NCBI RefSeq assembly: GCF_000245755.1
Contig: NZ_JH601088.1
Span: 1,426,535-1,450,534, forward strand
DNA length: 24,000 bases
Reading direction: 5' to 3'
Source: Helcococcus kunzii ATCC 51366
GTDB lineage: Bacteria; Bacillota; Clostridia; Tissierellales; Peptoniphilaceae
The notes under the pieces: generated by a model
Seen by the model: the letters and a program-made list of their open reading frames with translations, nothing else
Database searches by the model: none
What the model was told of the DNA's origin: nothing
Program-made: the position numbers and the translations under genes
Shown here: piece after piece, positions 4,317 through 20,840 of the stretch
Layout of the letters: the number at the start of each line of letters is the position of its first letter
Numbering within the stretch: position 1 is the stretch's first letter

Positions 4317-5053
4317 GTATTCATCTTTCTATCTTTTAATGTAAATATTTTATATAAAACAAATGTGCCAACATTAAATAATAAAACTAATGTCATGGCA
4401 TGTAAAATACGGGAATCAAACAGAGGCATTCCCCCAGGCATAGCAATCATGTACCCGTAATTTATACGTGAATATATTGGCTTTAGAATAAAATTAACGC
4501 ATATTAATAATAGATTAAAAATATTTGTGAAAACTAAAACATTTCTTAAATCTTTTTTGTTTAATGACACATTTTCTACAAATAATAAATCTGCAACCAC
4601 CCATCCTAGTATCAAATGAACGATAAAGAATTGGAAATTTGTATAATGTGGGAAGTTATATGCGTATAAATCTGGCATGGTAAGTGCAAATAGACTTCCG
4701 AAAAATCCCCAAAATATTGTCATTACTTTGAAGAACTTAATTTTTGTAAATACTGCAAAAATCAAGAAAAATACCGCGATTCTACAATGATACAAAGGTA
4801 GACTCATATCAAATGAAAATCTACCAGATCCAAATTGCCATAAATACAAAACGATCTGGTCGACAAGTATGATTGATGCAAATATCTTTAGTAACTTTTT
4901 GTTTGTTGACGCAATATTTAGATTGAATTTTTTATTGATTATTAAATATGCAACAGTTAAAAATGCAATTAATATCACTATATGAAGCATACCGTATTTA
5001 TCAAATACGAATCCATCTTCTTTCCCTCTAAAAAAATATTTCATAAATTCCAT
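4286..5053 (-). CDS. Integral membrane protein (about 7 TM), family uncertain (possibly YwaF/TIGR02206-like)
   Basis: A 255-aa ORF that is strongly hydrophobic and periodic throughout. I found no catalytic motif I can name. It is co-directional with its neighbours and overlaps the next gene. Confidence 0.5.
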   Translation of the reverse strand: MEFMKYFFRGKEDGFVFDKYGMLHIVILIAFLTVAYLIINKKFNLNIASTNKKLLKIFASIILVDQIVLYLWQFGSGRFSFDMSLPLYHCRIAVFFLIFAVFTKIKFFKVMTIFWGFFGSLFALTMPDLYAYNFPHYTNFQFFIVHLILGWVVADLLFVENVSLNKKDLRNVLVFTNIFNLLLICVNFILKPIYSRINYGYMIAMPGGMPLFDSRILHAMTLVLLFNVGTFVLYKIFTLKDRKMNTWETTKSLVR

Positions 5054-5169
5054 AATTTTCTCTTTTCCTATCTAATTTAAATCGTATATTATTAAAAATT
5101 TTAATATACTTATATTAATGATTTTAGAAAAAAGTGCAATATTTAATCCTATTTAAATGTTAAAAATTT

Positions 5170-5225
5170 ATTAAGAAAATATTAAAACTAGATAAAATAC
5201 ACGAATTTCGTCTATTTATCTAGTT
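5170..5225 (-). terminator. Rho-independent terminator after the ABC/GDPD operon
   Basis: An 11-bp perfect stem, AACTAGATAAA (5186-5196) / TTTATCTAGTT (5215-5225), with an inner ACG..CGT helix. On the minus strand it is followed by TTTAATATTTTCTT. It begins 13 nt downstream of the GDPD stop (5239). Confidence 0.6.
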
Positions 5226-5238
5226 CTAAAAATATTAT

Positions 5239-6078
5239 TTATTTTTTATATTTTAAGTTTCTAAATTCATCTATGAAATTAGGCCAATCGGTTTGTATAC
5301 AATTCGCTCCCAGTTCAAGCATTTTACCCCATACAGCTTCTTCATTTCCTAAAATGGCCTCATCGTCTGATAAATTTAGAAATAAATTAAATCCCTTACC
5401 TAAAGTCTCCGAATTTATCATACGTAATTGAAAATCAAATAATTTAGAATTTGAAGAAAGATTATATAAATCACTATCTTTCCCAGTGATTATCATCTCT
5501 GCCCCAACTAAATTATAGTAATCAAATTGTAAAACTCTCTCAAAATCATCTTCGGAATAAATTATTGGGAAATAATATAAAGGTCGCTTAAAATTTTTTA
5601 ATTTTTCCAAATACAAAATATTTGCACTTGATTTGAAAAGTAAATTCTCTGTCTTTCCACAATTATCAATTATATCGATAAACGCTTCATCATCCCAATA
5701 GTTCCAAGATCTATCTATATTGACTAAAGCATTATCAGGAATCCATTCCAAGTATTCTTCAAGTGTATTAATTTTCTTTCCACTAAGAGTCCCAATAGTA
5801 TTATAAAATTCTAAATTATCTATTTCATGTGAAGAAAGTTCAGAGAAATTTTTATCTATATTAAAAAGTTGTTTCTCATTTCCATCATGAAAAATATAAT
5901 ATTTTCCATCACTTGACCTACAAACATCTATTTCAACAATATCCACGCCGGCTTTGAGCGCTAGTTTAGAAGATTCTATAGTATTTTGAATGATATTAGC
6001 TCCATAAAAACCTCTATGACAAGCTATCAAAAGACTGTTATTTTTCAGCTTTTCTTCCAATAATCTGTTTTTCATCAC
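5239..6078 (-). CDS. Cytoplasmic glycerophosphodiester phosphodiesterase (GDPD family)
   Basis: ACHRGFYGANIIQNTIESSKLALKAGVDIVEIDVCRSSDGKYYIFHD fits the HRG...(E)NT...ExD...HD GDPD signature, with Q in place of the usual E of 'ENT'. There is no signal peptide. The start ATG overlaps the permease stop (ATGA at 6078-6075), and the RBS is GGAG. Confidence 0.75.
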   Translation of the reverse strand: MMKNRLLEEKLKNNSLLIACHRGFYGANIIQNTIESSKLALKAGVDIVEIDVCRSSDGKYYIFHDGNEKQLFNIDKNFSELSSHEIDNLEFYNTIGTLSGKKINTLEEYLEWIPDNALVNIDRSWNYWDDEAFIDIIDNCGKTENLLFKSSANILYLEKLKNFKRPLYYFPIIYSEDDFERVLQFDYYNLVGAEMIITGKDSDLYNLSSNSKLFDFQLRMINSETLGKGFNLFLNLSDDEAILGNEEAVWGKMLELGANCIQTDWPNFIDEFRNLKYKK

Positions 6079-7838
6079 ATCTCCATTTTTTGAATAACTT
6101 CATTCTCATCAATTTTACTTATTTTATTTTTCTTCTTTCTATCAAATCCTCTACCATAAACTAAGTACATTACTATAGTACTGATAATCATCAATACAAC
6201 AGAATACACCAAGTTTATCGCTCTGGCATCAACACTAGCCATAGGATCGGCATTTTTCCTAATCATTATCCCCAAAGTTTCAGCAGTTGGATGATATAGA
6301 AATGCTGATAAATCATAATCTACCAATAATCCATTAAAATTCAATGCAAACAATGCTAGCGCTGTAGGTAATATTACAGGCACAATTACTTTTACTAAAG
6401 TCCTAAAACTGGATGCACCTAGGTTTCGTGAAGCATTTTCCAAATTCGGATCTAATGAAAGCAATGAACTTTTGATATATCTCAATGTTGATGGCATTGT
6501 GTTTATGATATACGCAATTAACAGGATAACAAGCGAACCGACAAGCACATTGTTAAATAGCCATGGCCATCCTTGGCTATATCCAAGTATTAAACCTAAA
6601 GCAATAAATAAGCTTGGCACCAACCATGGTATATAAAAGGCATATTCTAAGATTAATGCAATTCTTGTTTTATATTTTGTCACAATCCACGCAACAACTA
6701 TCATTAAAAATACTGTTGTAAAGGAAGCCAAACCAGAATAAATCACTGAAGTAATGAATGTTTTTAACACGGAAGCATCCCCCAACACCTTGGCATAATT
6801 TTCAAAAGTAAACTTACTTAAATCAATCACACCTTTTGCAATCTGAGTATATGGCATAAATGAAAATAGCACAACCATAAATATTGGCAGTGAATAAATC
6901 ACAAATAGTAACCAAGCCAAGATATGGACTATTGTGTTTACAAGCGGATTGTGAATTTTTACCTTCTCAATTTTTGTTTTAGTTTTTGAAATGGATAAAT
7001 AACTACCTCTTCTTTCATTTCTCGTCATTATCATTAATAATATCATTTGAGAAATACCTAAAAGTAAAGCCAATACCGCCGCAATATCTCTTGAAGATAC
7101 ACGTTTCGCAAAATCAAGTATCAAAGGTGAGATTGTCCTAAATCCTTCACCACCAACCATTAGTGGAGCAGCCATAGCACCTAAACCTGTTTGAAACGCC
7201 ATAACTGTTAATGTTGTAAGTGTTGGTTTAAATTGAGGAAGTACCACTTTTGTAAGAATGGTCCACTGATCAGCACCCAGATTTTCAGCCGCTTGTATTG
7301 TTTGAAAATCTATTGATTTAACAGCATTTCTAAAAAACAGCATATGATTTGATGTACATGCAAATGTCATAACAAAAATAACCGCCGGGGCGCCAATAAA
7401 CCAGCCTTTATTGAAATTTGGTATTATGCCATTAAGCATATTTGTCACAATTCCATTTTGTCCATAAACTAGTAAATATCCGTTATTTAGTAAAATACCT
7501 CCAAACACCAAGGTAGACATAAAAGCTATTCTTAATATTTTCGCTCCCCAAACTTTATAATATTCGGTTATTAAAACGATAAATATTCCTACAATATTTA
7601 CAGTAAAACTTAGCACTATACCAATCATAAAGGAATTAGTAATCCCTGTAAGAGCACGTTTTGATTTACTTACTTTTTCTATTGCTCTAGTAGATATGCT
7701 ACCATCTTTTACGAATGTTTCACGCAGTACAGACAAATTCGGCCAGATTAAAAATGAAAAAATTAACCAAGCAAAAAATATTAAAATTAATATTAATCCA
7801 AAGTTTAATTTCTTTCCTTTTCTAAATTTACTCCACAT
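6075..7838 (-). CDS. ABC importer permease, fused double-domain (12-TM) FbpB/ThiP/AfuB type
   Basis: Two EAA-loop regions (AENLGADQWTILTKVVLPQFKP and SRNLGASSFRTLVKVIVPVILP) indicate two BPD-type permease domains. I moved the start to ATG 7838 (MWSKFRKGKK), which is preceded by AAAAGGGGAGG. This start overlaps the ATPase stop by 11 nt. Confidence 0.8.
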   Translation of the reverse strand: MWSKFRKGKKLNFGLILILIFFAWLIFSFLIWPNLSVLRETFVKDGSISTRAIEKVSKSKRALTGITNSFMIGIVLSFTVNIVGIFIVLITEYYKVWGAKILRIAFMSTLVFGGILLNNGYLLVYGQNGIVTNMLNGIIPNFNKGWFIGAPAVIFVMTFACTSNHMLFFRNAVKSIDFQTIQAAENLGADQWTILTKVVLPQFKPTLTTLTVMAFQTGLGAMAAPLMVGGEGFRTISPLILDFAKRVSSRDIAAVLALLLGISQMILLMIMTRNERRGSYLSISKTKTKIEKVKIHNPLVNTIVHILAWLLFVIYSLPIFMVVLFSFMPYTQIAKGVIDLSKFTFENYAKVLGDASVLKTFITSVIYSGLASFTTVFLMIVVAWIVTKYKTRIALILEYAFYIPWLVPSLFIALGLILGYSQGWPWLFNNVLVGSLVILLIAYIINTMPSTLRYIKSSLLSLDPNLENASRNLGASSFRTLVKVIVPVILPTALALFALNFNGLLVDYDLSAFLYHPTAETLGIMIRKNADPMASVDARAINLVYSVVLMIISTIVMYLVYGRGFDRKKKNKISKIDENEVIQKMEM

Positions 7839-8871
7839 TGTATAACCTCCCCTTTTCATCATATTGAAGAATATTTTTAGGAGATATTGCGACATTTACC
7901 TTATCACCTATTTCAAAATAGTTTTTACCCCCTTCTTTCTCTAATGATTTGAATTCAAGATTATTAAATTTAAGTGTATAAATGGATGTAGTACCTGAAT
8001 AGGTCCTATCTATAACTTCAACAGGAATCTCGATTTGCCCTTCTTTTAATTCATTATAGAAGTTTTTAATTTTTTCTATTCTGATATAGGATTTTGCATT
8101 TTCATTTAGATTGCAATTTCCTAATCTGTTAATTTCTCTTATAAAATCACTACTCAAAAGATTTGCATCCCCAATAAAATTACATACAAATTCTGTTTTA
8201 GGTTTTTCATAAATATCTCTTGGAGTACCTATTTGCTCAATATATCCATTATTGAAAACCGCTATTTTATCCGATAAACTAAGTGCTTCCTCTTGGTCAT
8301 GAGTTACATAAACTGAGGTCATTCCAGCATCTCGTTGTATTTTTTTAAGCTCATTTCTTAATTGTTTTCTTAGTTTCGCATCTAAATTTGATAAAGGCTC
8401 ATCAAGCAGCATAGTTTCTGGTTCTTTTGCTAGAGCTCTAGCAATAGCAACTCTTTGTTGTTGCCCTCCTGAAAGTTCTGAAACATTTCTATTTAATTGC
8501 TCATCATTCAAATTTACTAGTCTCGCCAAATAATCAATTCTTTCCTTAATCTTTTCTTTACTAGCTTTAGCAACTTTCAAACCGAATACAATATTTTCAT
8601 AAGATGTCATTGTTTGAAATAACGCATAAGATTGAAATACCATTCCTAAGTCTCTTTTTTCTACAGCTTTATATGTTATATCTTCTCCAGCTAAAATTAT
8701 TTGACCTTTTGAAGGCGTCTTAAAACCAGCAATTGATTTTAATACTGTAGACTTCCCACATCCCGAAGGTCCTAAAAGGGTGAAAAACTCTCCCTTTTCT
8801 ACCTTAAAACTTATATCATCAACTGCAATAAAATCTCCATATTTTACTTGTACATTTTTTAGTTCTAACAT
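7828..8871 (-). CDS. ABC transporter ATP-binding protein (PotA/FbpC-like, with C-terminal TOBE-like extension)
   Basis: Walker A GPSGCGKST, signature LSGGQQQRVAIARAL, Walker B MLLDEPLSNLD and H-loop VYVTHDQ are all present. I moved the start to ATG 8871 (MLELKNVQVKY), which has the RBS AGAGGGGAA. Confidence 0.9.
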   Translation of the reverse strand: MLELKNVQVKYGDFIAVDDISFKVEKGEFFTLLGPSGCGKSTVLKSIAGFKTPSKGQIILAGEDITYKAVEKRDLGMVFQSYALFQTMTSYENIVFGLKVAKASKEKIKERIDYLARLVNLNDEQLNRNVSELSGGQQQRVAIARALAKEPETMLLDEPLSNLDAKLRKQLRNELKKIQRDAGMTSVYVTHDQEEALSLSDKIAVFNNGYIEQIGTPRDIYEKPKTEFVCNFIGDANLLSSDFIREINRLGNCNLNENAKSYIRIEKIKNFYNELKEGQIEIPVEVIDRTYSGTTSIYTLKFNNLEFKSLEKEGGKNYFEIGDKVNVAISPKNILQYDEKGRLYNVE

Positions 8872-8968
8872 AATTCCCCTCTTTGAAAAAGGCTGAGCAA
8901 ATGCCCAGCCTATGATTTTACACAATTTATACTCAAGACAGCTCTTCTATAAATTGTTTATTTATATT

Positions 8969-10078
8969 TTAGTCAATTATTTCTAATTCAACCTTTTCAA
9001 TCCAGCTGGATAAGTTCTTTGTTACCCATTCCCAATCTAAATCCATTGGAGTTGTTTGTTCCATAATTTCAACCATTCTCTTATCCGCTTTTTCTTGAGC
9101 TTTTTTATTTACTGGCCATGATCCAAACTCTTCAGCCCATCCACCTTGAACTTCTGCAGAACCAAACCAATTAATAAAATCTTTTGCTAATTGATAATCT
9201 TTGTCATCCCCTTTATTTATAATTCCGATTTGTTCTTTCATTGATACTACACCATATTCTGGATTTACTGGTGTAGACTTGTGACCAAATTGTTTTTCAG
9301 CTCCTGGGATACCTGATGAAAATGTGAATGTCACAGGGATCTTACCATTTGAGAAGTTTTCATTTTCGTCTTCAGCTTCAGGTGTAACACGACCATTTTT
9401 ATACCATGAATCTACTACATCCCACGCTTCTTCTTTAACGCCTAATTCAGCAGCATCATCCTTAAATGCATACAATACAGAGATAAGCGCTTTTTGATTT
9501 GTACCACCAGTTAAATTACTTGGTAATTTATATTTTCCTTTGAATTTTTCATTTGTTGCAAGATCTACCCAATCTTTTGGACCTTCTTTAATATATTTTT
9601 CATTAATTAACATCATAATTCTTTGTTCAACCAATGGATAATAATATCCCTTACCGGAAATATTCTTTTCATCCACTTCTTTAGCCCAATCCGGTTCAAA
9701 TTCAACTAATAAATTTTCGTTTTTAATAGTTCCAAACATCGCATCATCAAGACCGAAAACTATATCAGCTTGTGGATTTCCTTTTTCAGCTAAAACTCTA
9801 TTAAGTGTATCTCCTCCACCAGCACCAACAATTTGTAGTTCAAATCCTTTTTCTTTAGCCTTTGATACTAACCATTCTTCTCTACCATCAGCATTTGAGT
9901 TTGTATAAATAGTTAACTTTTTACCATTAGAATTTCCATCTTTATTTGATTCATCCTTTGAATCACCCTCAGAAACTGATTCTCCTTTTGATTCATCTTT
10001 TGTATCATTTGTATTGCTACAAGCAACAAAAGAAAATACCATTACTAATGCAAGTAGCATTGCTATTATCTTTTTCAT
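8969..10078 (-). CDS. ABC transporter substrate-binding lipoprotein (iron(III)/thiamine/AfuA-type SBP fold)
   Basis: I moved the start to ATG 10078 (RBS TTGGAGGA). MKKIIAMLLALVMVFSFVAC is a lipoprotein signal with a lipobox Cys. A Ser/Asp/Glu/Lys-rich tether follows (NTNDTKDESKGESVSEGDSKDESNKDGNSNGKK). It is the first gene of the SBP-ATPase-permease-GDPD unit. Confidence 0.75.
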   Translation of the reverse strand: MKKIIAMLLALVMVFSFVACSNTNDTKDESKGESVSEGDSKDESNKDGNSNGKKLTIYTNSNADGREEWLVSKAKEKGFELQIVGAGGGDTLNRVLAEKGNPQADIVFGLDDAMFGTIKNENLLVEFEPDWAKEVDEKNISGKGYYYPLVEQRIMMLINEKYIKEGPKDWVDLATNEKFKGKYKLPSNLTGGTNQKALISVLYAFKDDAAELGVKEEAWDVVDSWYKNGRVTPEAEDENENFSNGKIPVTFTFSSGIPGAEKQFGHKSTPVNPEYGVVSMKEQIGIINKGDDKDYQLAKDFINWFGSAEVQGGWAEEFGSWPVNKKAQEKADKRMVEIMEQTTPMDLDWEWVTKNLSSWIEKVELEIID

Positions 10079-10403
10079 ATAATCCTCCAATTTTCGTGTT
10101 AAATAATATAGCATATAAATTATTTACAACTTGAGTGTACATGTTAAATATTAAAACCATATTAAATCGATGTAAAAAATTGTTAAATCTGGTAAAAAAT
10201 ATATTATCAAAAATGATAAAAATAAGGTGTCAAAACTTGTAACCATCACATATATCTGCATTGTCTTAAAATAAATTTCAAAAAACGCATTAACTTTCCT
10301 AACTAGTTTTTCATTATCATTAGTGATATGATTAACATAGTAAATATGAGTATATTACTCAAACTAACGGGTATTGTTAATAATTTATTTTTAGGTGGAT
10401 GCT

Positions 10404-12152
10404 ATGAACAAATTAAAAAAATATATAATTTCATTTTCTACTTTACTAATACTTCTTTTTACATCACATATAGCTTTAGCTAATAATATTGAATCAATTA
10501 ATTCTAAAGCAAAAATACATAAAGACGGATCTGTTACCATTACGGAACATCGTATTTTCCATGCCGAAAAAGGGACTGAACATTATCTAACTTTCGGAAA
10601 TTTAGGACCTTCAGAACTTTTAGATTTTAAGGTTTATGAGAAAGGTGAAGAATTACAAAACATAGGGTCATGGGATACCAAAGCAAGTTTAGAGGAAAAG
10701 GCTGGGAAATACGGTGTCAATAAAACTTCTGGTGGTATTGAATTATGTTTCGGCATAGGCAGTTATGGCAAAAAAGATTTTACTATTGAATACACATTTT
10801 CAAATTTCATTAGAGAATTGCAAGACGGAAAACAGGCTGCTTATTGGTACTTCATTCAGCCTAATATGAATCCAGTTTCAGAAATTGAAATCATTGTAAC
10901 AAATGATTTCGGATTTAATTTCAAAACTTCAGGGACAAAAATTTGGGGCTTCGGATATAAAGGACTAACAGAAATACTAGATAATCAACTCTCATTAACA
11001 GCAAATAAAGGATTTAACACAAGCGATTATATTGTAATGTTAAGCATTTTCCCCGAAAAGACTTTCAACACAACAGCAAAGTCTAAGCATACTTCAAAAA
11101 GCATATTAAATTTAGCCATGACGGGAGCTACTTCAAATGAAACAGTACAAGAAAATCCTACAAATAATAGAAAGAGTAATTTTTTCTCAAATGATGCTGA
11201 AAGAAATAAACTAATACTGTTTGGGTTAATATGGTTAGGTGCTGCAATTCTCATTTATCCTTTAGTTTATGCTAATGAAAAGCGTAAAAAGAAAGAAGAA
11301 TATGAGGAAACACATAGATATATTACATATACACGCGAAGGTACATATTATAGAGAAATTCCATATGATGGAAAGATAACAGATATTGGAGAATTTTTCA
11401 CTGCTCCCCTATCACAATATATTATGGTTTTAATATTGAAATGGATACAAGACGGATATCTTAAAGAGACAAAAACTAAGAAGGGTTTAATCTTTAAAAA
11501 AGAAAAATTTGCCCTTGCTATTAATGAAAACATTCATTTTGAATCTGATTCACAAGCAGAAAAAGAACTTTGGGAAATGATTGTGTCAGCCTCAGGTGAA
11601 GACAAAATATTATCCGAAAGAGAATTTTTAGATTATGTTTATAAATATGAGAATGGTATAAATTGGTGGCATGGTCATATAAACAATGAAGGAATAAAGA
11701 ATTTAGAAAAAGAAAACTACATAAAAGCAGAATATAAAAAGTTTTTCATATTCTTTACGACTAAAAGATATAAAGCAACCAAAAAAGGTCAACAACTTAT
11801 CGACAATATTATGGGATTTAGAAACTACCTACTAGACTTTTCCCTTCTTTCTGAAAGAGAAGTTGGCGATGTTAAACTCTGGGAAAAATACATGATCTGG
11901 GCTAGTATGATGGGAATAAGTAAAGAAGCATACAAACAATTAAGTTTAGTAAACGCTAAAATTGTTGAAAAATTCAACTATAATTTTGACACAATATCTT
12001 CAGCAGATAGCTTTGCATCAAGCATAGAAAGATCTCAAAGAATTATAGATAATCGATACGAATCTTCAAGCTCCTCTGGTGATGGCGGTTCATCCTACAT
12101 CGGTGGCGGAAGTGGTGCCGCAGGAGAAAGCTCTGGCGGTGGAACAAGATAA
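10404..12152 (+). CDS. DUF2207-like membrane protein
   Basis: It has an N-terminal signal/TM segment (IISFSTLLILLFTSHIALA) and an extracytoplasmic domain. These are followed by a central TM (LILFGLIWLGAAILIYPLVYA), a cytoplasmic domain and a Gly/Ser-rich tail (SSSSSGDGGSSYIGGGSGAAGESSGGGTR), all typical of DUF2207. I prefer ATG 10404 (RBS AGGTGGA) over the track's GTG at 10395. Confidence 0.65.
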   Translation: MNKLKKYIISFSTLLILLFTSHIALANNIESINSKAKIHKDGSVTITEHRIFHAEKGTEHYLTFGNLGPSELLDFKVYEKGEELQNIGSWDTKASLEEKAGKYGVNKTSGGIELCFGIGSYGKKDFTIEYTFSNFIRELQDGKQAAYWYFIQPNMNPVSEIEIIVTNDFGFNFKTSGTKIWGFGYKGLTEILDNQLSLTANKGFNTSDYIVMLSIFPEKTFNTTAKSKHTSKSILNLAMTGATSNETVQENPTNNRKSNFFSNDAERNKLILFGLIWLGAAILIYPLVYANEKRKKKEEYEETHRYITYTREGTYYREIPYDGKITDIGEFFTAPLSQYIMVLILKWIQDGYLKETKTKKGLIFKKEKFALAINENIHFESDSQAEKELWEMIVSASGEDKILSEREFLDYVYKYENGINWWHGHINNEGIKNLEKENYIKAEYKKFFIFFTTKRYKATKKGQQLIDNIMGFRNYLLDFSLLSEREVGDVKLWEKYMIWASMMGISKEAYKQLSLVNAKIVEKFNYNFDTISSADSFASSIERSQRIIDNRYESSSSSGDGGSSYIGGGSGAAGESSGGGTR

Positions 12153-12175: not shown

Positions 12176-12596
12176 TTTTAGCACCATATTTTGATTTCTA
12201 AAATTTGGTGCTAATTTTTTTAGATGATTTTAGCACCATATCTATTTTTTTAAAAAATGGTGCTAGATTTTTATAAGAATTTTTAGCACCAAATATGATA
12301 TTTCTCAGTTTGGTGCTATTTTAGCCAAATTATTTTAGCACCATATCTGATACTTCTTCTTTTGGTGCTATTTTTATCCATAACTTTTAGCACCATATTT
12401 GAAATTTTTCATTTAGGTGCTAGTTCTTATGAATCTCCTTAAAAATTCTAAGAGTTTTGGAACTAAATTTCAATTTTTAATATTTAGTTCCAATTTTCTC
12501 AAGGCATTTTGGTACTAAATTTCCATTTTTAAAATTTAGTTCCATTTTCATCCAAATTTTTTGGTACTAAAATCGATTTTTTCAAATTTAGTACCA
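12176..12596. repeat. Array of 8 tandem hairpin-forming inverted repeats: five TAGCACCA/TGGTGCTA units and three TGG(T/A)ACTA/TAGT(A/T)CCA units
   Basis: 5' arm cores start at 12179, 12231, 12284, 12336 and 12388, then at 12458, 12510 and 12562. 3' arm cores start at 12206, 12258, 12311, 12363, 12415, 12485, 12537 and 12589. The arm-to-arm offset is exactly 27 nt in all 8 units. The unit period is 52-53 nt except for a 70-nt step between the two subfamilies. Loops and inter-unit spacers diverge while the arms are conserved. Confidence 0.9.
12178..12221 (+). terminator. Rho-independent terminator of the DUF2207 gene (also unit 1 of the hairpin array)
   Basis: TTAGCACCA (12178-12186) pairs with TGGTGCTAA (12206-12214). 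The stem extends via ATTTT/AAAAT around a 7-nt loop and is followed by TTTTTTT (12215-12221). Confidence 0.7.
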
Positions 12597-12643
12597 TTCC
12601 CACAAAAACTTCCAATACCCATTCTAAAAATTAAATCATTTTC

Positions 12644-13591
12644 CTATTGTCTATCTGAATGTATTGACAGTGCCCCTATTAAATTGGCGTCATTTCTATA
12701 TTTACATGTGACAACTTCCGGTTTGCTAAATGGGATGAATGGTATTTTGCCCCAAAGCTTGTCTACATGTTTTCTAATTATTTCGGTGACTTCTTTTCTT
12801 TCGCTTATTCCGCCACCTATTGCAATTTTTTCTACATCGAGAATGCTTTGTATGGTATAAATGCCTGTTGCTGCCAAACTTCCAAATCTATCTAAAGCTT
12901 TTATTGCTTCTTCTTCATTGTTATCGTAGGCTTCAAAGAATTCAATGCCATTTACATCTGCTATAACTTTTCCTGATTTTAGCATTTCATCTTTGTATAT
13001 GTTTATTAGACCTGTTGTTGAAAAGGAGCTTGCCATAAAAGGGCTCAACTGTCCTGTTTTGTCAGCACCAAGGATTGAGATTTCTTCCATATTGGCTAAT
13101 TTTTCGAAATTGGAAACTATATGTGAAAGTTCACCAGACCCGAAAGAATTTCCCATTCTCACTTTGCCATCTAGGATTACTCCACCGCCCGTACCGGTTC
13201 CGAGAACTATTACTACTCCATCTTTTACATCTGATAATGCACCACTCCACGCTTCCGCTTTAGCTGCACATTTTGCATCATTTGCAATGGTGATTGGAAC
13301 ATCTAAATGTTCATTTAGTTTTGCGACAATTGGAAAGTCTTTTACAAACATGTACACACCAAGTGTGTGAGCGATACCTTTATCTGTATCTATCCTACCT
13401 GGTAATGATATGGCTATTGAATCAATGATATCTTCATATTTTTTACACAGATCTACTAGGGAATCAACTACTTCTGTTTTAGATTTATAATTTGAAGGAA
13501 GTTTCCCTTTTTCTAAAAATTTGCCATTTTCATTCATAAGTGCATATTTGGTATATGTGCCACCAACGTCCAAAACTAAATACTTTTTCAT
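12644..13591 (-). CDS. ROK-family sugar kinase (BglK / GlcNAc-kinase-like, no Cys-rich zinc motif)
   Basis: KYLVLDVGGTYTKYAL is the N-terminal ATPase phosphate-1 motif, and VIVLGTGTGGGVILDGKVRMGNSFGSGELSH is the ROK signature region. The RBS is GGAGAG. It is the last gene of the operon. Confidence 0.8.
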   Translation of the reverse strand: MKKYLVLDVGGTYTKYALMNENGKFLEKGKLPSNYKSKTEVVDSLVDLCKKYEDIIDSIAISLPGRIDTDKGIAHTLGVYMFVKDFPIVAKLNEHLDVPITIANDAKCAAKAEAWSGALSDVKDGVVIVLGTGTGGGVILDGKVRMGNSFGSGELSHIVSNFEKLANMEEISILGADKTGQLSPFMASSFSTTGLINIYKDEMLKSGKVIADVNGIEFFEAYDNNEEEAIKALDRFGSLAATGIYTIQSILDVEKIAIGGGISERKEVTEIIRKHVDKLWGKIPFIPFSKPEVVTCKYRNDANLIGALSIHSDRQ

Positions 13592-13612
13592 TATGCTCTC
13601 CTACTTTATTAA

Positions 13613-14362
13613 TTATTTATTTGATTTTACCGCAGTGATGAATCTTTCCGCTATTTCTGGATCTACATCAATATATGTATTTTCTGAATCTTTAAATATT
13701 GAATAGTTTATTTTATTTTTTGTTGTAATGTCTTCATAATTTTTCTTACAAGAACTATGGACATATTGAGCGTTTGTAGATTTTAACAGTTCAACCACAT
13801 TGTCAGGATTTATTCCAGAACCCAAAATTATCTCAATTTTATTTTCATATTTTTGAACAAGTTCTTTAATTAAATCTGTATTTTCCAATGCACTTGCTGT
13901 TTGCCCACTAGTTAATACCCTATCTACTTTCAATTCTATTAAATCTTCAATTGATTGGAATGGATCTTTTGTATTATCAAATGCTCTGTGGAATATTGCA
14001 ATCTTTCCAGCATTATGAATCTTCTCTACAAATATTTTCGTTTTTTCCTTATCTATTTCAAAATCTTCTGTTAAGAAACCAAAAACTATTCCGTCAATTT
14101 TTTCATTTAATAAAATATCCAATTCTTCTAACATTTCACTAAATTGATTATCAGTATAGCAAAAACCCGCAGCACGATTTCTAATCATACAATTCTTTTT
14201 GATATTGATATTTTCTGCAATTTTTCTCAATACACCAGGACTTGGAGTCAATCCGCCTAGACATAGTGCAGAATTGATTTCAACACTATCAAATCCTAAC
14301 TTTTCGGCTAATTTTGCGGCTTCATAGTTTTCAATACATAATTCGACTTTGACTTCATTCAT
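13613..14362 (-). CDS. cutC: CutC-family TIM-barrel protein
   Basis: VELCIENYEAAKLAEKLGFDSVEINSALCLGGLTPSPGVL matches the CutC N-terminal consensus (LEVC..s...A...GAdRiELcsaL..GGlTPS.G). The length of 249 aa fits, and the RBS is TGGAGGGAA. Confidence 0.75.
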   Translation of the reverse strand: MNEVKVELCIENYEAAKLAEKLGFDSVEINSALCLGGLTPSPGVLRKIAENINIKKNCMIRNRAAGFCYTDNQFSEMLEELDILLNEKIDGIVFGFLTEDFEIDKEKTKIFVEKIHNAGKIAIFHRAFDNTKDPFQSIEDLIELKVDRVLTSGQTASALENTDLIKELVQKYENKIEIILGSGINPDNVVELLKSTNAQYVHSSCKKNYEDITTKNKINYSIFKDSENTYIDVDPEIAERFITAVKSNK

Positions 14363-14404
14363 TGATTCCCTCCATTCACAATATAAATATTATCTATACT
14401 TCTA

Positions 14405-15526
14405 TTATACAATAATATCACCATCTTCAACTTGATTTAATTTATATATACCATAAGCGTAGATTTTCGCACATTTCACTAAATCATCGATATCCATCCA
14501 TTCGTTTGGTAAATGAGCGATTCCATTTTGGCCTGGAAATGATGGACCAAAAGGAATGACTGTCTTTATTTTATGCGCATAAGTCATACCTGTAGTTGTT
14601 GTTGGCTCGATTTCTTGACCTGTCGCTTCTATATATGCTTGATTTAGTAATTTCACATTTGTAGATTCTGGATTTTTAAGAGCAGCTTCTGTGTAATTTA
14701 TAAGGGAAACTTCTAAATCTTCAGCTTTTTCTTTTATTTTTTCTATAATTTTTTCAATGTCACATTCCCCCATTGAAAGTTGAAATCTTAGACTTTCTTT
14801 TGAATCTTCTGTAAATATTCTATATCCTCTAACTATTAGTTTTCCAAAATACTTATCTTCAAAATCTATACCAAGTCTTTTACCATTATTATCAGCATTT
14901 AGAATGTATTTGTTTAAGAATGTGTATAGTTTTTCTTTATCCCCTGAAACTTTAATATTTGCTCTTGCTCTTTCCCCATATATCGCTGGGAATTTGTTAT
15001 CCGGAACAAAACCAAGCACTGGTAGTTTCTCTTTAGACAAATAGTAGTCTATATCAGACATTCCGCTTTCTTCGTCTGCACCAAATACAATTCTTATTTC
15101 TCTCTTTGGTTTAATCTCTAGGTTTTTTAATGCAATAAGTCCATATAAAGCAGCAATTGCCGGCCCTTTATTATCTAACGCACCTCTTGAATACATTCTA
15201 TTTTCTATAATTTTTCCAGAAAAAGGTGGACAAATCCAATCATCCCAATCACCTTCTGGCACTACATCTAAATGTCCAAAAATTCCCATGTGTTCTTCTG
15301 AATCACCATATTTTGCATACGCCATATATCCATCAACATTTTTCATCGTAAAATTTTCTCTCTCACAAATTTGTAAAATTGCATCTAATACTTTTCTACA
15401 ATTCTCTCCAAAAGGTGCATTTTCTTTTGGAGATGATTTTACACTTGGGATATTAATTATCTTTACTAAATCCTCTATCATTTGGTCTTTAAGTCTATCT
15501 ATTTCAGCAAATAACTTTTTTTTCAT
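14405..15526 (-). CDS. M20-family metallopeptidase (PepV/Sapep-like dipeptidase, short form)
   Basis: GIFGHLDVVPEGDWDDWICPPF, YSRGALDNKGPAIAAL and VFGADEESG are the M20 metal-ligand and catalytic blocks. The start ATG overlaps the upstream stop by 1 nt (TAATG), and the RBS is GGAGGG. Confidence 0.8.
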   Translation of the reverse strand: MKKKLFAEIDRLKDQMIEDLVKIINIPSVKSSPKENAPFGENCRKVLDAILQICERENFTMKNVDGYMAYAKYGDSEEHMGIFGHLDVVPEGDWDDWICPPFSGKIIENRMYSRGALDNKGPAIAALYGLIALKNLEIKPKREIRIVFGADEESGMSDIDYYLSKEKLPVLGFVPDNKFPAIYGERARANIKVSGDKEKLYTFLNKYILNADNNGKRLGIDFEDKYFGKLIVRGYRIFTEDSKESLRFQLSMGECDIEKIIEKIKEKAEDLEVSLINYTEAALKNPESTNVKLLNQAYIEATGQEIEPTTTTGMTYAHKIKTVIPFGPSFPGQNGIAHLPNEWMDIDDLVKCAKIYAYGIYKLNQVEDGDIIV

Positions 15527-16575
15527 TATCCCTCCACGATTTTATTAAAACTTTCTCTATTTGTATTTTTTATAATCAATTCTACTAGTTTAATACATTC
15601 CTCTATATCTGATTTATGGACAATACTATGATTTGTATGCATATATCTTATAGGGATGGAAAGTGATAAGTTAACAACTCCTTTTAACGTCTTATGAATG
15701 TTTCCTGAATCAGTACCACCTCTATTAAAAACTGCATACTGATATTTTATCCCATTATTTTCACATAAATCTTCTATCCATCTCATCAATCCTCTATGAG
15801 CTATGCTATTTGAATCAATAAAAGATAAAACGACTCCACCGCCTAATTTCACAATATTTTCATCAAATGGTGTATCCCCTGCAACGATAGTATCAATTGC
15901 AATTCCAATATCTGGCTCAATCATATGTGTTGAAGTCCTTGCTCCTCTAAGTCCTGGCTCTTCTTGTACAGTAAATGCCCAATAAAGCTCGCAATCGGAT
16001 TTAATATCTTTTTTCAAAGTTTCCAAACCAACAAAACATGAGACCCTATCATCAAAAGCTTTATTTAACAATGTTTTCCCAAATCCTAATTCAGAAAATT
16101 GAGATACAGGAGTGACCATATCTCCAATTTGAATATTCGCCCTTTTTATCTCTTCAGCATCCATTCCTAAATCTAGATACATTTTATCCTTAGGAATGGT
16201 CTTCTCTCTTTCCTTTGGATCTATCATATTATGTGATGAGGGACTGGAAATAACGCCTAAATATTGTTTGTTGTCTCTCGTTGTAAGTGTATAAAGTTGT
16301 CCAACTACTAAATGAGGCCATAAACTTCCTAGCATTCTAAGTTTTAAGAAATTATCTTCAATACTTTCGACTATAAAGCCAACCTCGTCCATATGTGTTG
16401 CGAACATCAGCTTAATCGCATTTTCATCTTTCTTTTTATCATCATATGCAATTATACTGCCGATACCATCATAAAAATAATTTGAAACTTCTTTCTCTAT
16501 CAAATCAGAAACCGACTTTTCAAATGAGGAAACCCCATTAATTGAAGATAATCTATTTAGTAAATCTAAATCCAT
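15526..16575 (-). CDS. M42-family aminopeptidase (FrvX/YsdC/TET type), catalytic residues intact
   Basis: All canonical M42 blocks are present: FATHMDEVGFIV, KAFDDRVS, FTVQEEPGLRGA, GIAIDT and IRYMHTNHS. The start abuts the upstream stop (TAAATG), and the RBS is GGGAGAGA. Confidence 0.85.
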   Translation of the reverse strand: MDLDLLNRLSSINGVSSFEKSVSDLIEKEVSNYFYDGIGSIIAYDDKKKDENAIKLMFATHMDEVGFIVESIEDNFLKLRMLGSLWPHLVVGQLYTLTTRDNKQYLGVISSPSSHNMIDPKEREKTIPKDKMYLDLGMDAEEIKRANIQIGDMVTPVSQFSELGFGKTLLNKAFDDRVSCFVGLETLKKDIKSDCELYWAFTVQEEPGLRGARTSTHMIEPDIGIAIDTIVAGDTPFDENIVKLGGGVVLSFIDSNSIAHRGLMRWIEDLCENNGIKYQYAVFNRGGTDSGNIHKTLKGVVNLSLSIPIRYMHTNHSIVHKSDIEECIKLVELIIKNTNRESFNKIVEG

Positions 16576-17577
16576 TTATCTCTCCCTTCTTATCAAATTA
16601 CTAATATTCTCATCTTCAATAAGCTTCAATAGAAATGTTTCTAACTTTTCAATATCGTTTTTAGAAACAATAACACTTGATGTTCCCATATTTTTCATTG
16701 GTATACCGACGGAAAGTGTTGGTACCCCCGCTAAAGTTTTATGAATAAATGAACCATCATTTCCTAAAACCCCCACATATGGTTTAGTTTCATATCTTTC
16801 TGTAATATACCTCAATAGATTTTGGTCTGGTATCATCTTTGAATCATAATATCCAACAATAACGCCATCTCCTAATTCTATCTTTGGATTTGAATTATTT
16901 ACTTCAAATCCTGTCACTACTATTGCCAAATCTGGCTCAACTACATGGTTTGCAGTTTTTGTGCCTCTAAAACCAATGGTGGATTGAGCAATCGCACCAA
17001 TGTAGAAATTATTATTTAATTTCCTTTCTTTAATTTTTTCAAGTATCTTTATACTCAAATATTGTGGTATTTTTTGAGTTAAACTCCTTCCAATAATATT
17101 ATTTTCCGTTTCTATTAACTCAGACTCTAGCGCAATTAAATCACCTATATTTAATTTTGTGTCGTCAAATGTTTCGACATATAAATCCTCTAACTTAATA
17201 GTTGAGATTTTTTCTTCTAATATTTTCTTATTTATTGTGATAAACCCACTAATATTCTCATTATCTCTAGTTGTGATGTTTACTCTTTGATGCAATAAAG
17301 ATGCTGGAGATAAATCTTCTAAAGTTAAAAAGTTTGCATGATTATCTTTATCAACAGCGCTAACTATTAATCCTATTTCATCCATTGCACATGCAATCAT
17401 TATTTTTTTTCTATTTTCTGGATTTTCAACTAATCTTTTCGCAAATATAGAATAAAGTCTATCTTCTACAATTTCATCAGAATATTTTTTATACCTTTCT
17501 TTTAAGTAAGTATTTAGTTTCTTTTCACAACTTGAAACAGAGTAAATGTCATATATTTCCCTTAACTCATCAAACAT
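16576..17577 (-). CDS. M42-family paralog with all metal-ligand/catalytic positions substituted (probable pseudo-peptidase)
   Basis: It is collinear with the neighbouring M42, but the aligned blocks read CAMDEIGLIV (H to A), RSLTQKIP (DDR to TQK), AIAQSTIGFRGT (EE to QS), AIVVTG (D lost) and MKNMGTSSV (H lost). I moved the start to ATG 17577 (RBS TTGGAGG). The track's start at 17589 is a TTG inside that RBS. Confidence 0.8.
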   Translation of the reverse strand: MFDELREIYDIYSVSSCEKKLNTYLKERYKKYSDEIVEDRLYSIFAKRLVENPENRKKIMIACAMDEIGLIVSAVDKDNHANFLTLEDLSPASLLHQRVNITTRDNENISGFITINKKILEEKISTIKLEDLYVETFDDTKLNIGDLIALESELIETENNIIGRSLTQKIPQYLSIKILEKIKERKLNNNFYIGAIAQSTIGFRGTKTANHVVEPDLAIVVTGFEVNNSNPKIELGDGVIVGYYDSKMIPDQNLLRYITERYETKPYVGVLGNDGSFIHKTLAGVPTLSVGIPMKNMGTSSVIVSKNDIEKLETFLLKLIEDENISNLIRRER

Positions 17578-17598
17578 ATTAACCTCCAATTATAATGA

Positions 17599-17621
17599 AA
17601 GCTGCTATAAAATAGCAGCTT
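17599..17621 (-). other. Intra-operon stem-loop between the GrdB-like and M42 genes
   Basis: AAGCTGCTAT (17599-17608) / ATAGCAGCTT (17612-17621) is a perfect 10-bp palindrome that is GC-rich for this region. It begins 4 nt after the TAA stop at 17628..17626. Only a weak U-tract (TTTCATTAT) follows on the minus strand. Confidence 0.45.
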
Positions 17622-17625
17622 AACA

Positions 17626-18150
17626 TTAATAACATATTTTCTTTTCTAGTTCAGATAGCTCTTCGCTATTTTCGTGTTTTAACTTCATCCATTTTATTAA
17701 ATCTTCAAATGAATCGCTTAATCCAACTCCACCTTTTTTAGGCATTTTTATAATGGAAATTTTATCCTTAAATTCAGCGATTGTTTCAGCATTATCATCT
17801 GACATCATTGTAACAACTGGAATATCAGTTGTTTTGGATATATTATCAGTTAATTCGGCACACATTTTTGCATAATCGATAAAGTTAAAGCAAGGTCCAC
17901 AAACTACCATATCTGGATTAATCTTTTTAACCATTGCTGTCATTTTATCTATTACTTCTTGCTCATTATTTAAGAAATACTGATTTCCGCAATATAATGT
18001 AGCAAAAACTTTAGCATCTATCTTATCAAAATGTGGCTGTAGCATAAGAGCTGATCCTATCCCACCTTTAGCTATTTGTAATCCTACATTAGGATTACTC
18101 TTACCACCGGCACCAGCTAAACCTTGATCGAAAATTAATACTACTTTCAT
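17626..18150 (-). CDS. Stand-alone protein resembling the N-terminal domain of glycine/sarcosine/betaine/D-proline reductase protein B (GrdB/PrdB family)
   Basis: MKVVLIFDQGLAGAGGKSNP...ATLYCGNQYFLNNEQEVIDKMTAMVKKINPDMVVCGPCFNFIDYAKMCAELTDNI parallels my recollection of the GrdB N-terminus (VVHYINQFF.GIGGEEKA ... VVCGD.YF.EN.DEA...I..MI....PD....GPAFNAGRYG.ACG). It is only 174 aa and ends at a TAA. The RBS is AGGAGAA. Confidence 0.55.
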   Translation of the reverse strand: MKVVLIFDQGLAGAGGKSNPNVGLQIAKGGIGSALMLQPHFDKIDAKVFATLYCGNQYFLNNEQEVIDKMTAMVKKINPDMVVCGPCFNFIDYAKMCAELTDNISKTTDIPVVTMMSDDNAETIAEFKDKISIIKMPKKGGVGLSDSFEDLIKWMKLKHENSEELSELEKKICY

Positions 18151-18180
18151 AATTAACTTCTCCTTTTTTACACATTAATT

Positions 18181-19533
18181 CTATAAATCATCAAAAGATA
18201 AATCGTCAAATGATAAATCATCGATTTCATCTTCTTTGTCTTTTTGTAGACGTTCTTCGTCAAGATATTTCTTATCCAATAATTTTAGGAATGGATAATA
18301 TATCAACATATTTATCGCTAAAAGTGCAAATTGAACAATAACAGCGTTGAATGATCCGGTTACCAGATAACCAGAGAATCCAATCGGTGTTGTCCATGGT
18401 AACTGTACCCCGGTTGTGATTGGCATAAATCCGACCATAGTTGCTAACATTGCAAGTACGGTATTTACAACTGGTGTTAATATAAATGGAATAATCATAA
18501 TTGGATTAAGCACTATTGGTAAACCAAAGATAATTGGTTCATTGATACCAAATATACCTGCAGGTAATGATAATCTACCTAACATCTTAATTCTATTTGA
18601 TTTTCCTAAAAACGCCATCATAATTACTAAACCAAGTGTTGATCCACCACCACCAAAGTTACAGAAGAAATCACTAAATCCAGCTGTAAATATATTTGTC
18701 ATTTCTAAACCAGCTTTTGCAGCTTCATAGTTTTCTAAAGTAAGCGCTTTATGTATTGGTGCAAATATTGTATTTGTTACAGCAGGTCCGTTGATTCCAA
18801 AGAACCAGAATAGTGTTGATAAGAATTGATAAATTACTTCAAATGCTGGGTTCTTACCTAAACCAACAAGTGGAGCTTGCAATACTTCATAAATAAAGTT
18901 GTGAGCATATTCGTATGATGTCTTACTAAATAGTATATTTAATACGAAGAAAAATACCATTACAAACGCCGCAGGTATCAACGCTGCAAATGAGTCCATA
19001 ACTGCAGGTGGTACCCCTTCTGGCAATTTGATAACAAGTTTTCTCTTAAACGCCCAATTAAAAATTCTAACTGAAATAATTGCTATTATCATAGATAGGA
19101 ACATTCCAGCTGTCCCTAAATTCCCAAATGAGAAACCTCTAAAAGCATTTTCTGCTTCATTTATAAAAGCTGGATGAGTTTGTGGAGTAATAATTAAAAA
19201 TGATACAAGTGAGATTACTGCTGCACCTATATTATTTGTCATTTTTAATTCTTTAGAGTAACAATACGCTATTGATAATGAAGCTAGTAATGCCACACAG
19301 TCAAATGCTATACCATATACTCTTCCTAAAAACGCATCCCATCCTTCACCAAATATTCCAGCCATAAATTCTGGATATCCCGCGATTGGGAAATTTGCAA
19401 CTAATAAGAATATTGATCCAACAATTACTATTGGAACTGTTACTAAGAATCCATCTCTAATCGCACTTAATACTTTATTTTTTGAAAGCGCATTAGCTAT
19501 TGGACCTAAGATTTTATCCATTTTTTCTAACAT
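18181..19533 (-). CDS. PTS EIIC, lactose/cellobiose/chitobiose (Lac) family, with acidic C-terminal repeat tail
   Basis: A 450-aa polytopic protein with the typical Lac-family EIIC N-terminus (LEKMDKILGPIANALSKNKVLSAIRDGF) and a GINGP-type block. It is flanked by EIIB and EIIA of the same family. The tail reads EDEIDDLSFDDLSFDDL. Confidence 0.85.
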   Translation of the reverse strand: MLEKMDKILGPIANALSKNKVLSAIRDGFLVTVPIVIVGSIFLLVANFPIAGYPEFMAGIFGEGWDAFLGRVYGIAFDCVALLASLSIAYCYSKELKMTNNIGAAVISLVSFLIITPQTHPAFINEAENAFRGFSFGNLGTAGMFLSMIIAIISVRIFNWAFKRKLVIKLPEGVPPAVMDSFAALIPAAFVMVFFFVLNILFSKTSYEYAHNFIYEVLQAPLVGLGKNPAFEVIYQFLSTLFWFFGINGPAVTNTIFAPIHKALTLENYEAAKAGLEMTNIFTAGFSDFFCNFGGGGSTLGLVIMMAFLGKSNRIKMLGRLSLPAGIFGINEPIIFGLPIVLNPIMIIPFILTPVVNTVLAMLATMVGFMPITTGVQLPWTTPIGFSGYLVTGSFNAVIVQFALLAINMLIYYPFLKLLDKKYLDEERLQKDKEDEIDDLSFDDLSFDDL

Positions 19534-19534
19534 A

Positions 19535-19855
19535 CTATCTTCCTTTCTTTAATTCAAATAAGGCTTTTTTCAGCACTCTTTCGCCATTCATAGTACCATA
19601 ATCTTCGGTATCTATTACCATAATAGGTTTACCTAAGTCCCCATATTTATCTTTTACTTTTTCATAAATATGTTTTACTTGAGGTCCCAATAAAATAACA
19701 TCTGGGTTTAATTTTGTAATAATTTCATCCATTTTACCTTGTGAATAAGCCTTAACTTCAATAGGTAAACTATTTTCGTCTGCCACTTTTTGCATTCTTT
19801 GTGCCAATAAGCTTGTAGACATCCCATTATCACAAAATAGATAGAATTTTTTCAT
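19535..19855 (-). CDS. PTS EIIB, lactose/cellobiose family
   Basis: KFYLFCDNGMSTSLLAQRMQ contains the phosphorylatable Cys in the CxxGxSTS context. I moved the start to ATG 19855 (RBS GGGAGAA 8 nt upstream). The stop lies 1 nt before the EIIC ATG. Confidence 0.85.
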   Translation of the reverse strand: MKKFYLFCDNGMSTSLLAQRMQKVADENSLPIEVKAYSQGKMDEIITKLNPDVILLGPQVKHIYEKVKDKYGDLGKPIMVIDTEDYGTMNGERVLKKALFELKKGR

Positions 19856-19923
19856 AGCCATTTCTCCCTTCTTCATATATTTAGGTTTTTTAAGGCAACC
19901 TATAATCCTTTAATACGCTTAGT

Positions 19924-20502
19924 TTATAGTATTTCTTTCACATAAGTAGAAAACATTTTATCTTGTAATGTTTGATTTCTTTTTTTATCTCGAATGGACA
20001 TAATTACAGATATGCCAATAAGGATAAACATCGGTATTGCAATTATCTTATCAATTTTTTCTACATTTTCTATTGAAAGAATTCTTAAAATCGTCCTTAA
20101 AATCACATTAAATGAGCTAAATAGTATCCCTTGAAGTATAAAACAACCAATGAAAAATCGCTTAAATAATGTTAAAAATTGTGGTTTTGTATTATCTTCG
20201 TTTAAAATCTCAATCCTAACAGCTTTCATCATCAATGTTTGAGCTCTTTTTGATTTATAAGGAATGTACACATAATAAATAAAAGCTACAATTAAAGGAA
20301 CGATGATAGATATAATATTGGTCACATTATCATGTTTTACAATATTGCCCATTTTATCTGATTTATTAGTCCAAATAAAAACTAATCTCATAAATAGATT
20401 TAATAATACTGATGAAAAATACCAATCAACAGCAAAGGCAAATACTCTTTTTACAAAATATCCCGCCCTATTTTCCGATTTTACTGTTGTTATTTTTTTC
20501 AT
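19924..20502 (-). CDS. RDD-family small membrane protein
   Basis: AGYFVKRVFAFAVDWYFSSVLLNLF carries the R and first D, and the C-terminal QTLQDKMFSTYV carries the second D. There are 3-4 TM segments. The start overlaps the EIIA stop (ATGA, 20502-20499). Confidence 0.65.
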   Translation of the reverse strand: MKKITTVKSENRAGYFVKRVFAFAVDWYFSSVLLNLFMRLVFIWTNKSDKMGNIVKHDNVTNIISIIVPLIVAFIYYVYIPYKSKRAQTLMMKAVRIEILNEDNTKPQFLTLFKRFFIGCFILQGILFSSFNVILRTILRILSIENVEKIDKIIAIPMFILIGISVIMSIRDKKRNQTLQDKMFSTYVKEIL

Positions 20503-20816
20503 TTTAGATCCTTGACTAATTTTAATATACTTATATTTTCTTCACATATTAATCTAAAATTATCTGCCGCCATTAGCTGATCTTCAGCATGCATCAATAT
20601 CAAACTAAAATCTATTTTTTCACCATTTGTTTCCTTATATATTAATTCAGAATGTGCTTCATGCGCTTTTAGATATTCTTTTTTTCCCTCTTCGATTAGT
20701 TCTTCTGCTTTTTCAAAATCAAATTTTCTTGCATATCTCATAGCCTCAATATAACTTGATTTTGCAGCCCCTGAAGAGGATATTATCTGAAAGCAAATCA
20801 TTTCAATATTTTCCAT
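20499..20816 (-). CDS. PTS EIIA, lactose/cellobiose family
   Basis: A 105-aa all-helical small protein. SLILMHAEDQLMAAD contains the conserved phospho-His context of EIIA(Lac/Cel). The RBS is AAGGGGTGAAA. Confidence 0.85.
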   Translation of the reverse strand: MENIEMICFQIISSSGAAKSSYIEAMRYARKFDFEKAEELIEEGKKEYLKAHEAHSELIYKETNGEKIDFSLILMHAEDQLMAADNFRLICEENISILKLVKDLK

Positions 20817-20840
20817 TTCTCATTTCACCCCTTTATATTT

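Follow-up and report, generated by a model that had tools for sequence, protein, structure and literature searches.

A strain-variable array of terminator-like hairpins between two convergent genes of Helcococcus kunzii

What kind of element is the row of hairpins that fills the gap between two convergent genes in Helcococcus kunzii, a bacterium of skin and wounds, and what may have kept its units foldable? The window considered here (the whole 24-kb stretch of DNA that was analysed) contains eight 52-nt hairpin units at positions 12176-12596, spanning the gap between the stop codons of a DUF2207 gene on the plus strand and a ROK kinase gene on the minus strand. An earlier note on this DNA had described these units, with an arm offset of 27 nt and unit-to-unit steps of 52, 53, 52, 52, 70, 52 and 52 nt; the sequence read, a repeat finder, TRF and the arm positions all return this arrangement. 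The array is real and statistically solid, and is best classed as a minisatellite of variable copy number that arose from an intrinsic-terminator hairpin and has conserved stems.

The array and its genomic setting

The fullest array found among the strains consists of 12 units (A1 to A5, the 70-nt step, and B1 to B7), of which the window array lacks B2-B3 and B6-B7. The features of the window locus are:

10404-12152, plus strand: DUF2207 membrane-protein gene (Pfam DUF2207/DUF2207_C), whose stop precedes the array
12176-12221, plus strand: unit A1, TTTT and hairpin at 12179-12213, arms TAGCACCA/TGGTGCTA, 15-bp stem, T7 tail
12228-12272, plus strand: unit A2, hairpin at 12231-12265
12281-12324, plus strand: unit A3, hairpin at 12284-12318
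12333-12376, plus strand: unit A4, hairpin at 12336-12370
12385-12428, plus strand: unit A5, hairpin at 12388-12422, right arm AGGTGCTA, poor U tail
12423-12457, strandless: non-repeat spacer responsible for the 70-nt step from block A to block B, kept in all alleles
12455-12498, plus strand: unit B1 (unit 6 of the earlier note), hairpin at 12458-12492, arms TGGAACTA/TAGTTCCA
12507-12550, plus strand: unit B4 (unit 7 of the earlier note), hairpin at 12510-12544, T.T mismatch in the central pair
12559-12608, plus strand: unit B5, joined at its right arm to the 3' flank of B7 (unit 8 of the earlier note), hairpin at 12562-12596
12644-13591, minus strand: ROK-family sugar kinase gene (Pfam ROK), last gene of an 11-gene operon

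The flanking genes and the operon are as described before. The N-glycan/PTS operon comprises 11 genes on the minus strand (21809 to 12644), which encode a glycosylasparaginase-type asparaginase, IIA, IIB and IIC components of a PTS of lactose/cellobiose type, an RDD protein, a GRDB-like protein, two M42 peptidases, one M20 peptidase, CutC and the ROK kinase. The gene for a PRD/Mga-type regulator runs divergently from the operon (21946-23850, plus strand), and a giant GH85 (+GH20) gene occupies the left end of the window (1-3389, minus strand). The neighbourhood (1-3389, 12644-21809, 21946-23850) looks like a locus for scavenging host N-glycans, with a PTS of chitobiose type. In GCA_029984345.1 (L056:1-2192) an MFS transporter gene and a gene for an AraC-type regulator are found directly upstream of CutC. 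Operon content therefore differs between lineages, as the window has the M20/M42 peptidase genes in this place instead.

The ROK protein falls into an H. kunzii cluster that includes HMPREF9709_01304 of ATCC 51366, and the DUF2207 protein into the matching cluster, with 89-98% identity to H. kunzii DUF2207 proteins. Of the genes compared between the H. kunzii lineages, DUF2207 has diverged most (23% at 4-fold sites, 89% protein identity); its neighbours differ at 10-20% of 4-fold sites (14% pooled), with 95-97% nucleotide identity. The Logan contigs of the type strain end within the Gly/Ser-rich 3' end of DUF2207. Tandem repeats with short units (12 nt and 15 nt; TRF scores 34-66) occur at window 9945-10014 and 18183-18222, within the gene for the solute-binding protein and at the 3' end of that for PTS IIC.

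Each of the eight units consists of an 8-nt arm and its reverse complement at an offset of exactly 27 nt, and all units are direct repeats in one orientation, the plus strand being the T-rich one. The repeat finder places seven copies in register (spacing 52, 53, 52, 52, 70, 52) and the eighth in its family D3; the period reported by TRF is 52. The gaps from each unit to its successor amount to 25, 26, 25, 25, 43, 25 and 25 nt. The spacing had been called rigid. This holds for the loop, which is 19 nt long in 12 of 12 units, strain-derived units included, but not for the spacers between units, whose length varies (17, 18, 26, 35 nt). Across strains the 27-nt offset is kept in every unit, except for one single-base polymorphism. 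All nine exact copies of TAGCACCA in the 24-kb window fall within the array; if up to one mismatch is allowed, the window has 34 matches, compared to 12.5 +/- 3.3 in shuffles.

The best promoter-like match of the region (TTGAAA-17-TAGAAT, 10/12) is located on the minus strand at 12473 to 12445, where it partly overlaps the spacer of the 70-nt step. It points leftward through A5-A1 into the antisense strand of DUF2207 and is followed by AAGGAG without a start codon. Promoter-like sites are not enriched (8 vs 4.7 +/- 2.1), and a 31-nt probe that covers most of the step spacer (12430-12460) has no significant fold of its own (z 0.3). Small ORFs, namely a 29-codon ORF on the plus strand and a 35-aa gene call in some loci, were rejected as spurious: they lack a ribosome-binding site and vary with the units present.

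Pairing and conservation among the units

Every unit of the window folds into a hairpin, at -8.6 to -16.2 kcal/mol with z between -4.2 and -6.7 (A1: -15.8 kcal/mol, z -6.7). Considering the 35-nt cores of all 12 units, eleven fold at -7.8 to -15.4 kcal/mol; B7 is weak (-4.5). Folding of both strands, a check suggested along with the original observation, results in z-scores of -11.6 (plus strand) and -12.3 (minus strand) for the whole 491-nt intergenic region relative to shuffles. In one alignment of units, 80% of the stem cells pair, as opposed to 26-43% when the partner column is slid; in a second one, the values are 85% and 24-41%.

The proposed selection on base pairing is supported when units are compared with each other. 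Arm identity among paralogous units is 97% in the A block and 92% in the B block, whereas loops reach 55% and 63% (random expectation 42%) and spacers 42% and 50% (random expectation 33%). The arms hold about 50% G+C within a region of 23% G+C; loops and spacers contain 55% T and 4-8% G on the plus strand. In the flanks of the hairpin, conservation is highest at the TTT that precedes it, present in 12 of 12 units, with the downstream tail being less conserved. Conserved single positions outside the stem are the TTT at columns 3-5, A15 and T24.

Compensatory changes in the stem had also been claimed. Stem pairs 2 and 7 indeed switch completely from type A to type B (A:U to G:C, C:G to U:A), and double changes occur at four stem pairs over the 12 units; the central pair, which the earlier note had emphasised, is the least reliable and is mismatched in three of seven B-type units, strain-derived units included. 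Only two arm types are present, which differ at three of eight positions. Units 1-5 had been given one arm pair, but the right arm of unit 5 (A5) is AGGTGCTA and not TGGTGCTA, resulting in one A.A mismatch. Since all covariation coincides with the single split between A and B (units 1-5 versus 6-8), it amounts to few events. A comparison of G.U with A.C pairs gives 2 vs 2 and hence does not point to a strand. Arm identity, G+C content, stem pairing and double changes provide strong evidence that the foldability of each unit has been maintained.

Strain alleles and distribution

Strain loci were fetched via the flanking proteins from other H. kunzii assemblies and read sets. The number of units differs across strains (6, 7, 8 in two different sets, and 12), and five strain loci match the window exactly in the array. 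The 12-unit allele is found in GCA_029984345.1, from a lineage whose DNA is about 95% identical to that of the window strain. The commonest allele lacks A1-A4 (L057, L058, L060-L062, L065-L067); relative to it, L069/L070 have lost one further unit through a B3/B4 fusion, and L059 (same contig as L048) has lost B4-B5. A5 is the only A-type unit present in all strains. Every difference between alleles is a whole-unit deletion with its breakpoint in or beside an arm. A1-A4 of GCA_029984345.1 recur in the window, and its B2, B3, B6 and B7 in the other strains; hence the 12-unit state is the ancestral one, and all recent changes are deletions. Whole units were lost via recombination or slippage between the conserved arms, and arms and their complementarity were kept while loops and spacers decayed.

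Individual units are dispensable, given that their number varies between 6 and 12 and that most strains are without A1-A4, including the strong terminator A1. Free variation among close strains had been named as evidence against selection on the array, and half of it is found: unit number does vary, with A1-A4 lost in most strains, but pairing is kept. Loops and spacers have diverged freely, as claimed, only between the units of one array, whereas a given unit is almost identical between strains. Between the lineages of 95% ANI, the alignment of about 640 nt contains 13 substitutions and one 1-nt indel. Four of the 13 substitutions are located in arms, which is no rarer than expected from arm length (about 3.9), and all four occur in GCA_029984345.1, the strain with an IS-like insertion in the array. 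Divergence of the array between lineages is about 2%, compared to 14% at 4-fold sites of the flanking genes. Other intergenic regions diverge by 1.0-7.4%. The argument that the array is more conserved than neutral sites was dropped, because other intergenic regions are equally conserved.

The IS-like element of GCA_029984345.1 is inserted inside the loop of B3 (L047:10175-10225, L056:4228-4282; both contigs break within it). About 9 bp of the target, TTCTATTTT, are duplicated, and the terminal inverted repeats of the element are imperfect, CCCCC[G/A][A/T]AAAA.TGGAGTATAAAA; its ends have no match among plasmids.

The locus L046 of a relative, whose ROK protein is 81% identical and which has no DUF2207, contains two degenerate B-like repeats of 61 nt downstream of ROK, without a significant fold (z -0.96). 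The same locus (L046:1-4247) is also without the binding-protein gene and most of the ABC ATPase gene, and many of its genes are split (ROK, permease, GDPD), as in a decaying genome or an error-prone assembly. A further relative, L045 (72% identity), has an ordinary terminator after ROK and no array.

A search for dispersed copies of the motif, as originally suggested, finds it to be specific to this locus in the window, about 79 kb of Helcococcus loci, a genome collection, metagenomes and viral contigs. No further copy of the array exists within the 24-kb window. A covariance model of the 12 units (R2), applied to the about 79 kb of partly overlapping Helcococcus loci, returns the array units and one weak match in L046 (E 0.006) at the orthologous spot. 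The pattern TTAGCACCA-N17-21-TGGTGCTAA, which captures exact A-type hairpins only (A1-A4 being absent from most H. kunzii, and the window possibly masked in this collection), has 39 single matches in 185,579 genomes, scattered over unrelated phyla and none in Helcococcus; this is about the number expected by chance, according to a rough estimate from database size and the information content of the pattern. A degenerate two-unit pattern matches six times in metagenomes, all of them short-period direct or coding repeats without a hairpin array, and has no match in viral contigs. BLAST of the array against plasmids and phages finds no match. Rfam returns nothing at gathering thresholds and, up to E 10, generic hairpin noise (miRNA and snoRNA models), with a CRISPR-DR match of 17 bits against a threshold of 47. 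A search of the literature on tandem terminator or hairpin arrays and on Helcococcus repeats found no precedent. As far as tested by these searches, the array is specific to its locus and lineage.

Possible roles of the array

The terminators elsewhere in the window (3646-3603, 5232-5183 and 23851-23915, following a PAP2-type gene, a GDPD gene and the regulator) are long hairpins, rich in A/T along the stem but with G/C at its base, and have a subsequent T run; the array units are of like build. As in intrinsic (Rho-independent) or tandem terminators, a stable stem-loop based on G/C pairs and, in most units, followed by a T run is found right after a stop codon. The resemblance to stacked plus-strand terminators noticed earlier extends to 8 of 12 units, which have at least five U within the 8-nt tail after the stem. 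A1 has a tail of seven U and is the only canonical strong terminator on the plus strand; the tail of A3 has only four U, that of A5 is poor, and B5-B7 are without U tails. On the minus strand, where A-runs and an operon without a canonical terminator had been reported, 12 of 12 units are followed by AAA and none by a U-rich tract, and the ROK gene has no terminator of its own of the hairpin-plus-U type among the minus-strand tails of the window locus. Different from intrinsic terminators, the array has up to 12 units in series, with a U-rich tail in only two thirds of them and none for the minus strand, and all stems are kept despite the redundancy.

The reading that we prefer, tentatively and at somewhat less than even chances, is that the array is a locus-specific minisatellite of intrinsic-terminator-type hairpins that acts in RNA. 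One such hairpin would have undergone an old duplication in the gap where the 3' ends of DUF2207 and the operon converge, and we infer that the array works at the level of RNA. On the plus strand, with a U run before each hairpin and after most, the units may constitute a fail-safe series of terminators and provide 3'-end hairpins for DUF2207 transcripts; serial termination would keep these transcripts from running antisense into the operon. On the minus strand, hairpins followed by A runs would not terminate, but could act as barriers to 3' exonucleases on the read-through 3' end of the operon transcript. REP hairpins of E. coli are barriers to 3' exonucleases. For Clostridia, intergenic stem-loops are documented as mRNA stabilisers (PMC4423207).

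In favour of an action in RNA we count the position and build of the units, A1, the asymmetry between strands and the apparent constraint on the hairpin. The absence of a fold in L046 also fits a loss of the need for plus-strand termination, DUF2207 being absent there. Several observations count against it. One good terminator would suffice, which makes twelve copies redundant; downstream copies should then be shielded from selection, yet all have kept their arms. Most strains are without A1-A4 and start with the poor-tailed A5, and the tails of B5-B7 lack U. The flank conserved best is the upstream TTT and not the downstream tail. The 19-nt loop is invariant despite differing apical pairing, although an RNA hairpin needs no fixed loop. 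Finally, the wobble test is without a strand signal, and substitutions are not depleted in arms (4 of 13).

Unlikely, though deserving serious weight, is the alternative that the array is a decaying and essentially functionless minisatellite, i.e., a terminator duplicated by slippage that is now only shrinking, whose arms persist by residual selection on a few units or by mutation processes linked to hairpins. In quasi-palindromes, template switching copies a change from one arm into the other. Much of the strain comparison is in line with this alternative: unit number is free to vary (6, 7, 8, 8, 12), recent events are all deletions, the strongest unit A1 is gone from most strains, recent substitutions are as frequent in arms as in loops, an IS-like element sits within B3 of one strain, and the divergence of about 2% is not below that of other intergenic regions (1-7%). 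Intergenic minisatellites or VNTRs are well known, for example the MIRU loci of mycobacteria with units of 51-77 bp. The array resembles them in its head-to-tail intergenic units within the 10-100 bp range (period 52) and in a copy number that varies between strains by gain or loss of whole units. It differs in being confined to a single locus, in the hairpin formed by each unit, and in the age of the units, which apart from their inverted arms have diverged strongly. Against a functionless decay, arms are 92-97% identical across units while loops are near random; template switching preserves the complementarity of arms but cannot keep twelve units alike, and the arms hold about 50% G+C against a strong A/T pressure. 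The four arm changes, all in the IS-carrying strain, may mean relaxed constraint there only.

An invariant loop and a nearly constant period would fit if the arms (TTT-T-R-G-N-A-C-Y-A and its partner) were protein sites on duplex DNA or on an RNA or DNA hairpin, 27 and 25 bp apart (52 bp, about 5 turns), and the array a nucleoprotein insulator, roadblock or titrating decoy. The existence of just two arm types despite long divergence and the conserved positions outside the stem are in keeping with such a platform, which we nonetheless regard as improbable. Neighbouring arms are exact reverse complements, as required for a hairpin but not for a degenerate palindromic site, and the difference between A and B at three of eight arm positions is hard to reconcile with a single binder. 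The ORFs of the window that were compared with Pfam include no partner gene, and units are freely lost. The idea of an iteron or centromere-like array, raised earlier on account of the period, is not upheld: the neighbours are DUF2207 and a sugar kinase, with neither rep nor par genes nor any similarity to plasmids or phages. The phasing of A-tracts, near the 99th percentile of shuffles, merely reflects harmonics of 52 and has no special 10.4-bp signal.

One concrete resemblance is to CIRCE, the operator of HrcA, defined as TTAGCACTC-N9-GAGTGCTAA (PMC1676014). The A-type arms TTAGCACCA ... TGGTGCTAA share with it, inverted, the outer 7 nt of each half (TTAGCAC...GTGCTAA), as at window 12178-12214 and in the other A-type units. 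The likeness stops at 7 of the 9 bases in each arm, the two innermost being different; the spacer has 19 nt rather than 9, and the B-type arms do not match. The array is furthermore located at gene 3' ends in at least five copies, whereas CIRCE belongs to the promoter of the chaperone operon; a normal CIRCE is found upstream of hrcA in the relative L045 (L045:9547-9573). That the arm pairs are sites for a dedicated protein, such as an HrcA-like repressor that recognises half-sites resembling CIRCE or a hairpin-binding RNA protein, with the array as a titrating decoy or insulator whose dose is set by unit loss, we consider a long shot. To our knowledge, none of the motifs for cre, CodY, LexA, NagR/DasR dre, Chi and T-box UGGN/NCCA matches the array in spacing or sequence.

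The REP/BIME elements of enterobacteria are imperfect palindromes that occur in clusters, in alternating orientation and in many dispersed copies. The array shares with them short imperfect palindromes, clustered in tandem at gene 3' ends or between convergent genes, and a plausible role as 3'-exonuclease barrier. It is nonetheless very improbable that the array is a cluster of a genome-wide element of REP/BIME or MITE type spread by a transposase: neither the window, nor the Helcococcus loci searched by covariance model (save the orthologous spot in L046), nor the genome collection with its 39 scattered A-type matches reveals a dispersed family, and the two-unit pattern, whose metagenome matches are all false positives, has none in viral contigs. 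All units have one polarity, their loops differ, unlike copies of a mobile element, and no associated transposase is known here. To the least probable explanation, a processed RNA array in the form of tandem small RNAs, a type III antitoxin-like repeat or a cas-less CRISPR-like array, we assign hardly any weight. Tandem structured units in non-coding DNA, together with the promoter-like match on the minus strand in the 70-nt step, would suit it, but promoter-like sites are not enriched, Rfam is empty at gathering level, and the units fall short of the near-identity seen among antitoxin or CRISPR repeats (42-63% identity outside arms). Neither strand has a toxin or cas gene downstream, or indeed any gene before the convergent partner, whereas the direct repeats of type III antitoxins stand immediately before an endoribonuclease toxin gene. 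The earlier judgement that the array is not CRISPR-like is supported. CRISPR arrays have near-identical repeats of 23-47 nt, unique spacers of about the same length and usually cas genes; here conservation is restricted to the arms of 8-13 nt, the spacers measure 17 nt, and no cas domain was found in the 16 window ORFs scanned against Pfam (among them not all of the six ORFs at 3657-10114).

On present evidence, the array is neither CRISPR-like, nor an iteron of plasmid type, nor a member of a dispersed repeat family. It is an oddity of one species, with no sign of a new kind of system. As the alleles of 6 to 12 units are distinguishable by PCR size, the array is a ready marker for strain typing in H. 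kunzii. If the arms were protein sites, the array would represent a new kind of chromosomal decoy, a 'sponge' of terminator-shaped units. If instead the preferred reading as serial terminators and 3'-end hairpins is true, the locus would be a natural case of a terminator hairpin amplified to a minisatellite whose copies have long been kept foldable, and would be relevant to the insulation of convergent operons in Firmicutes of very high A/T content.
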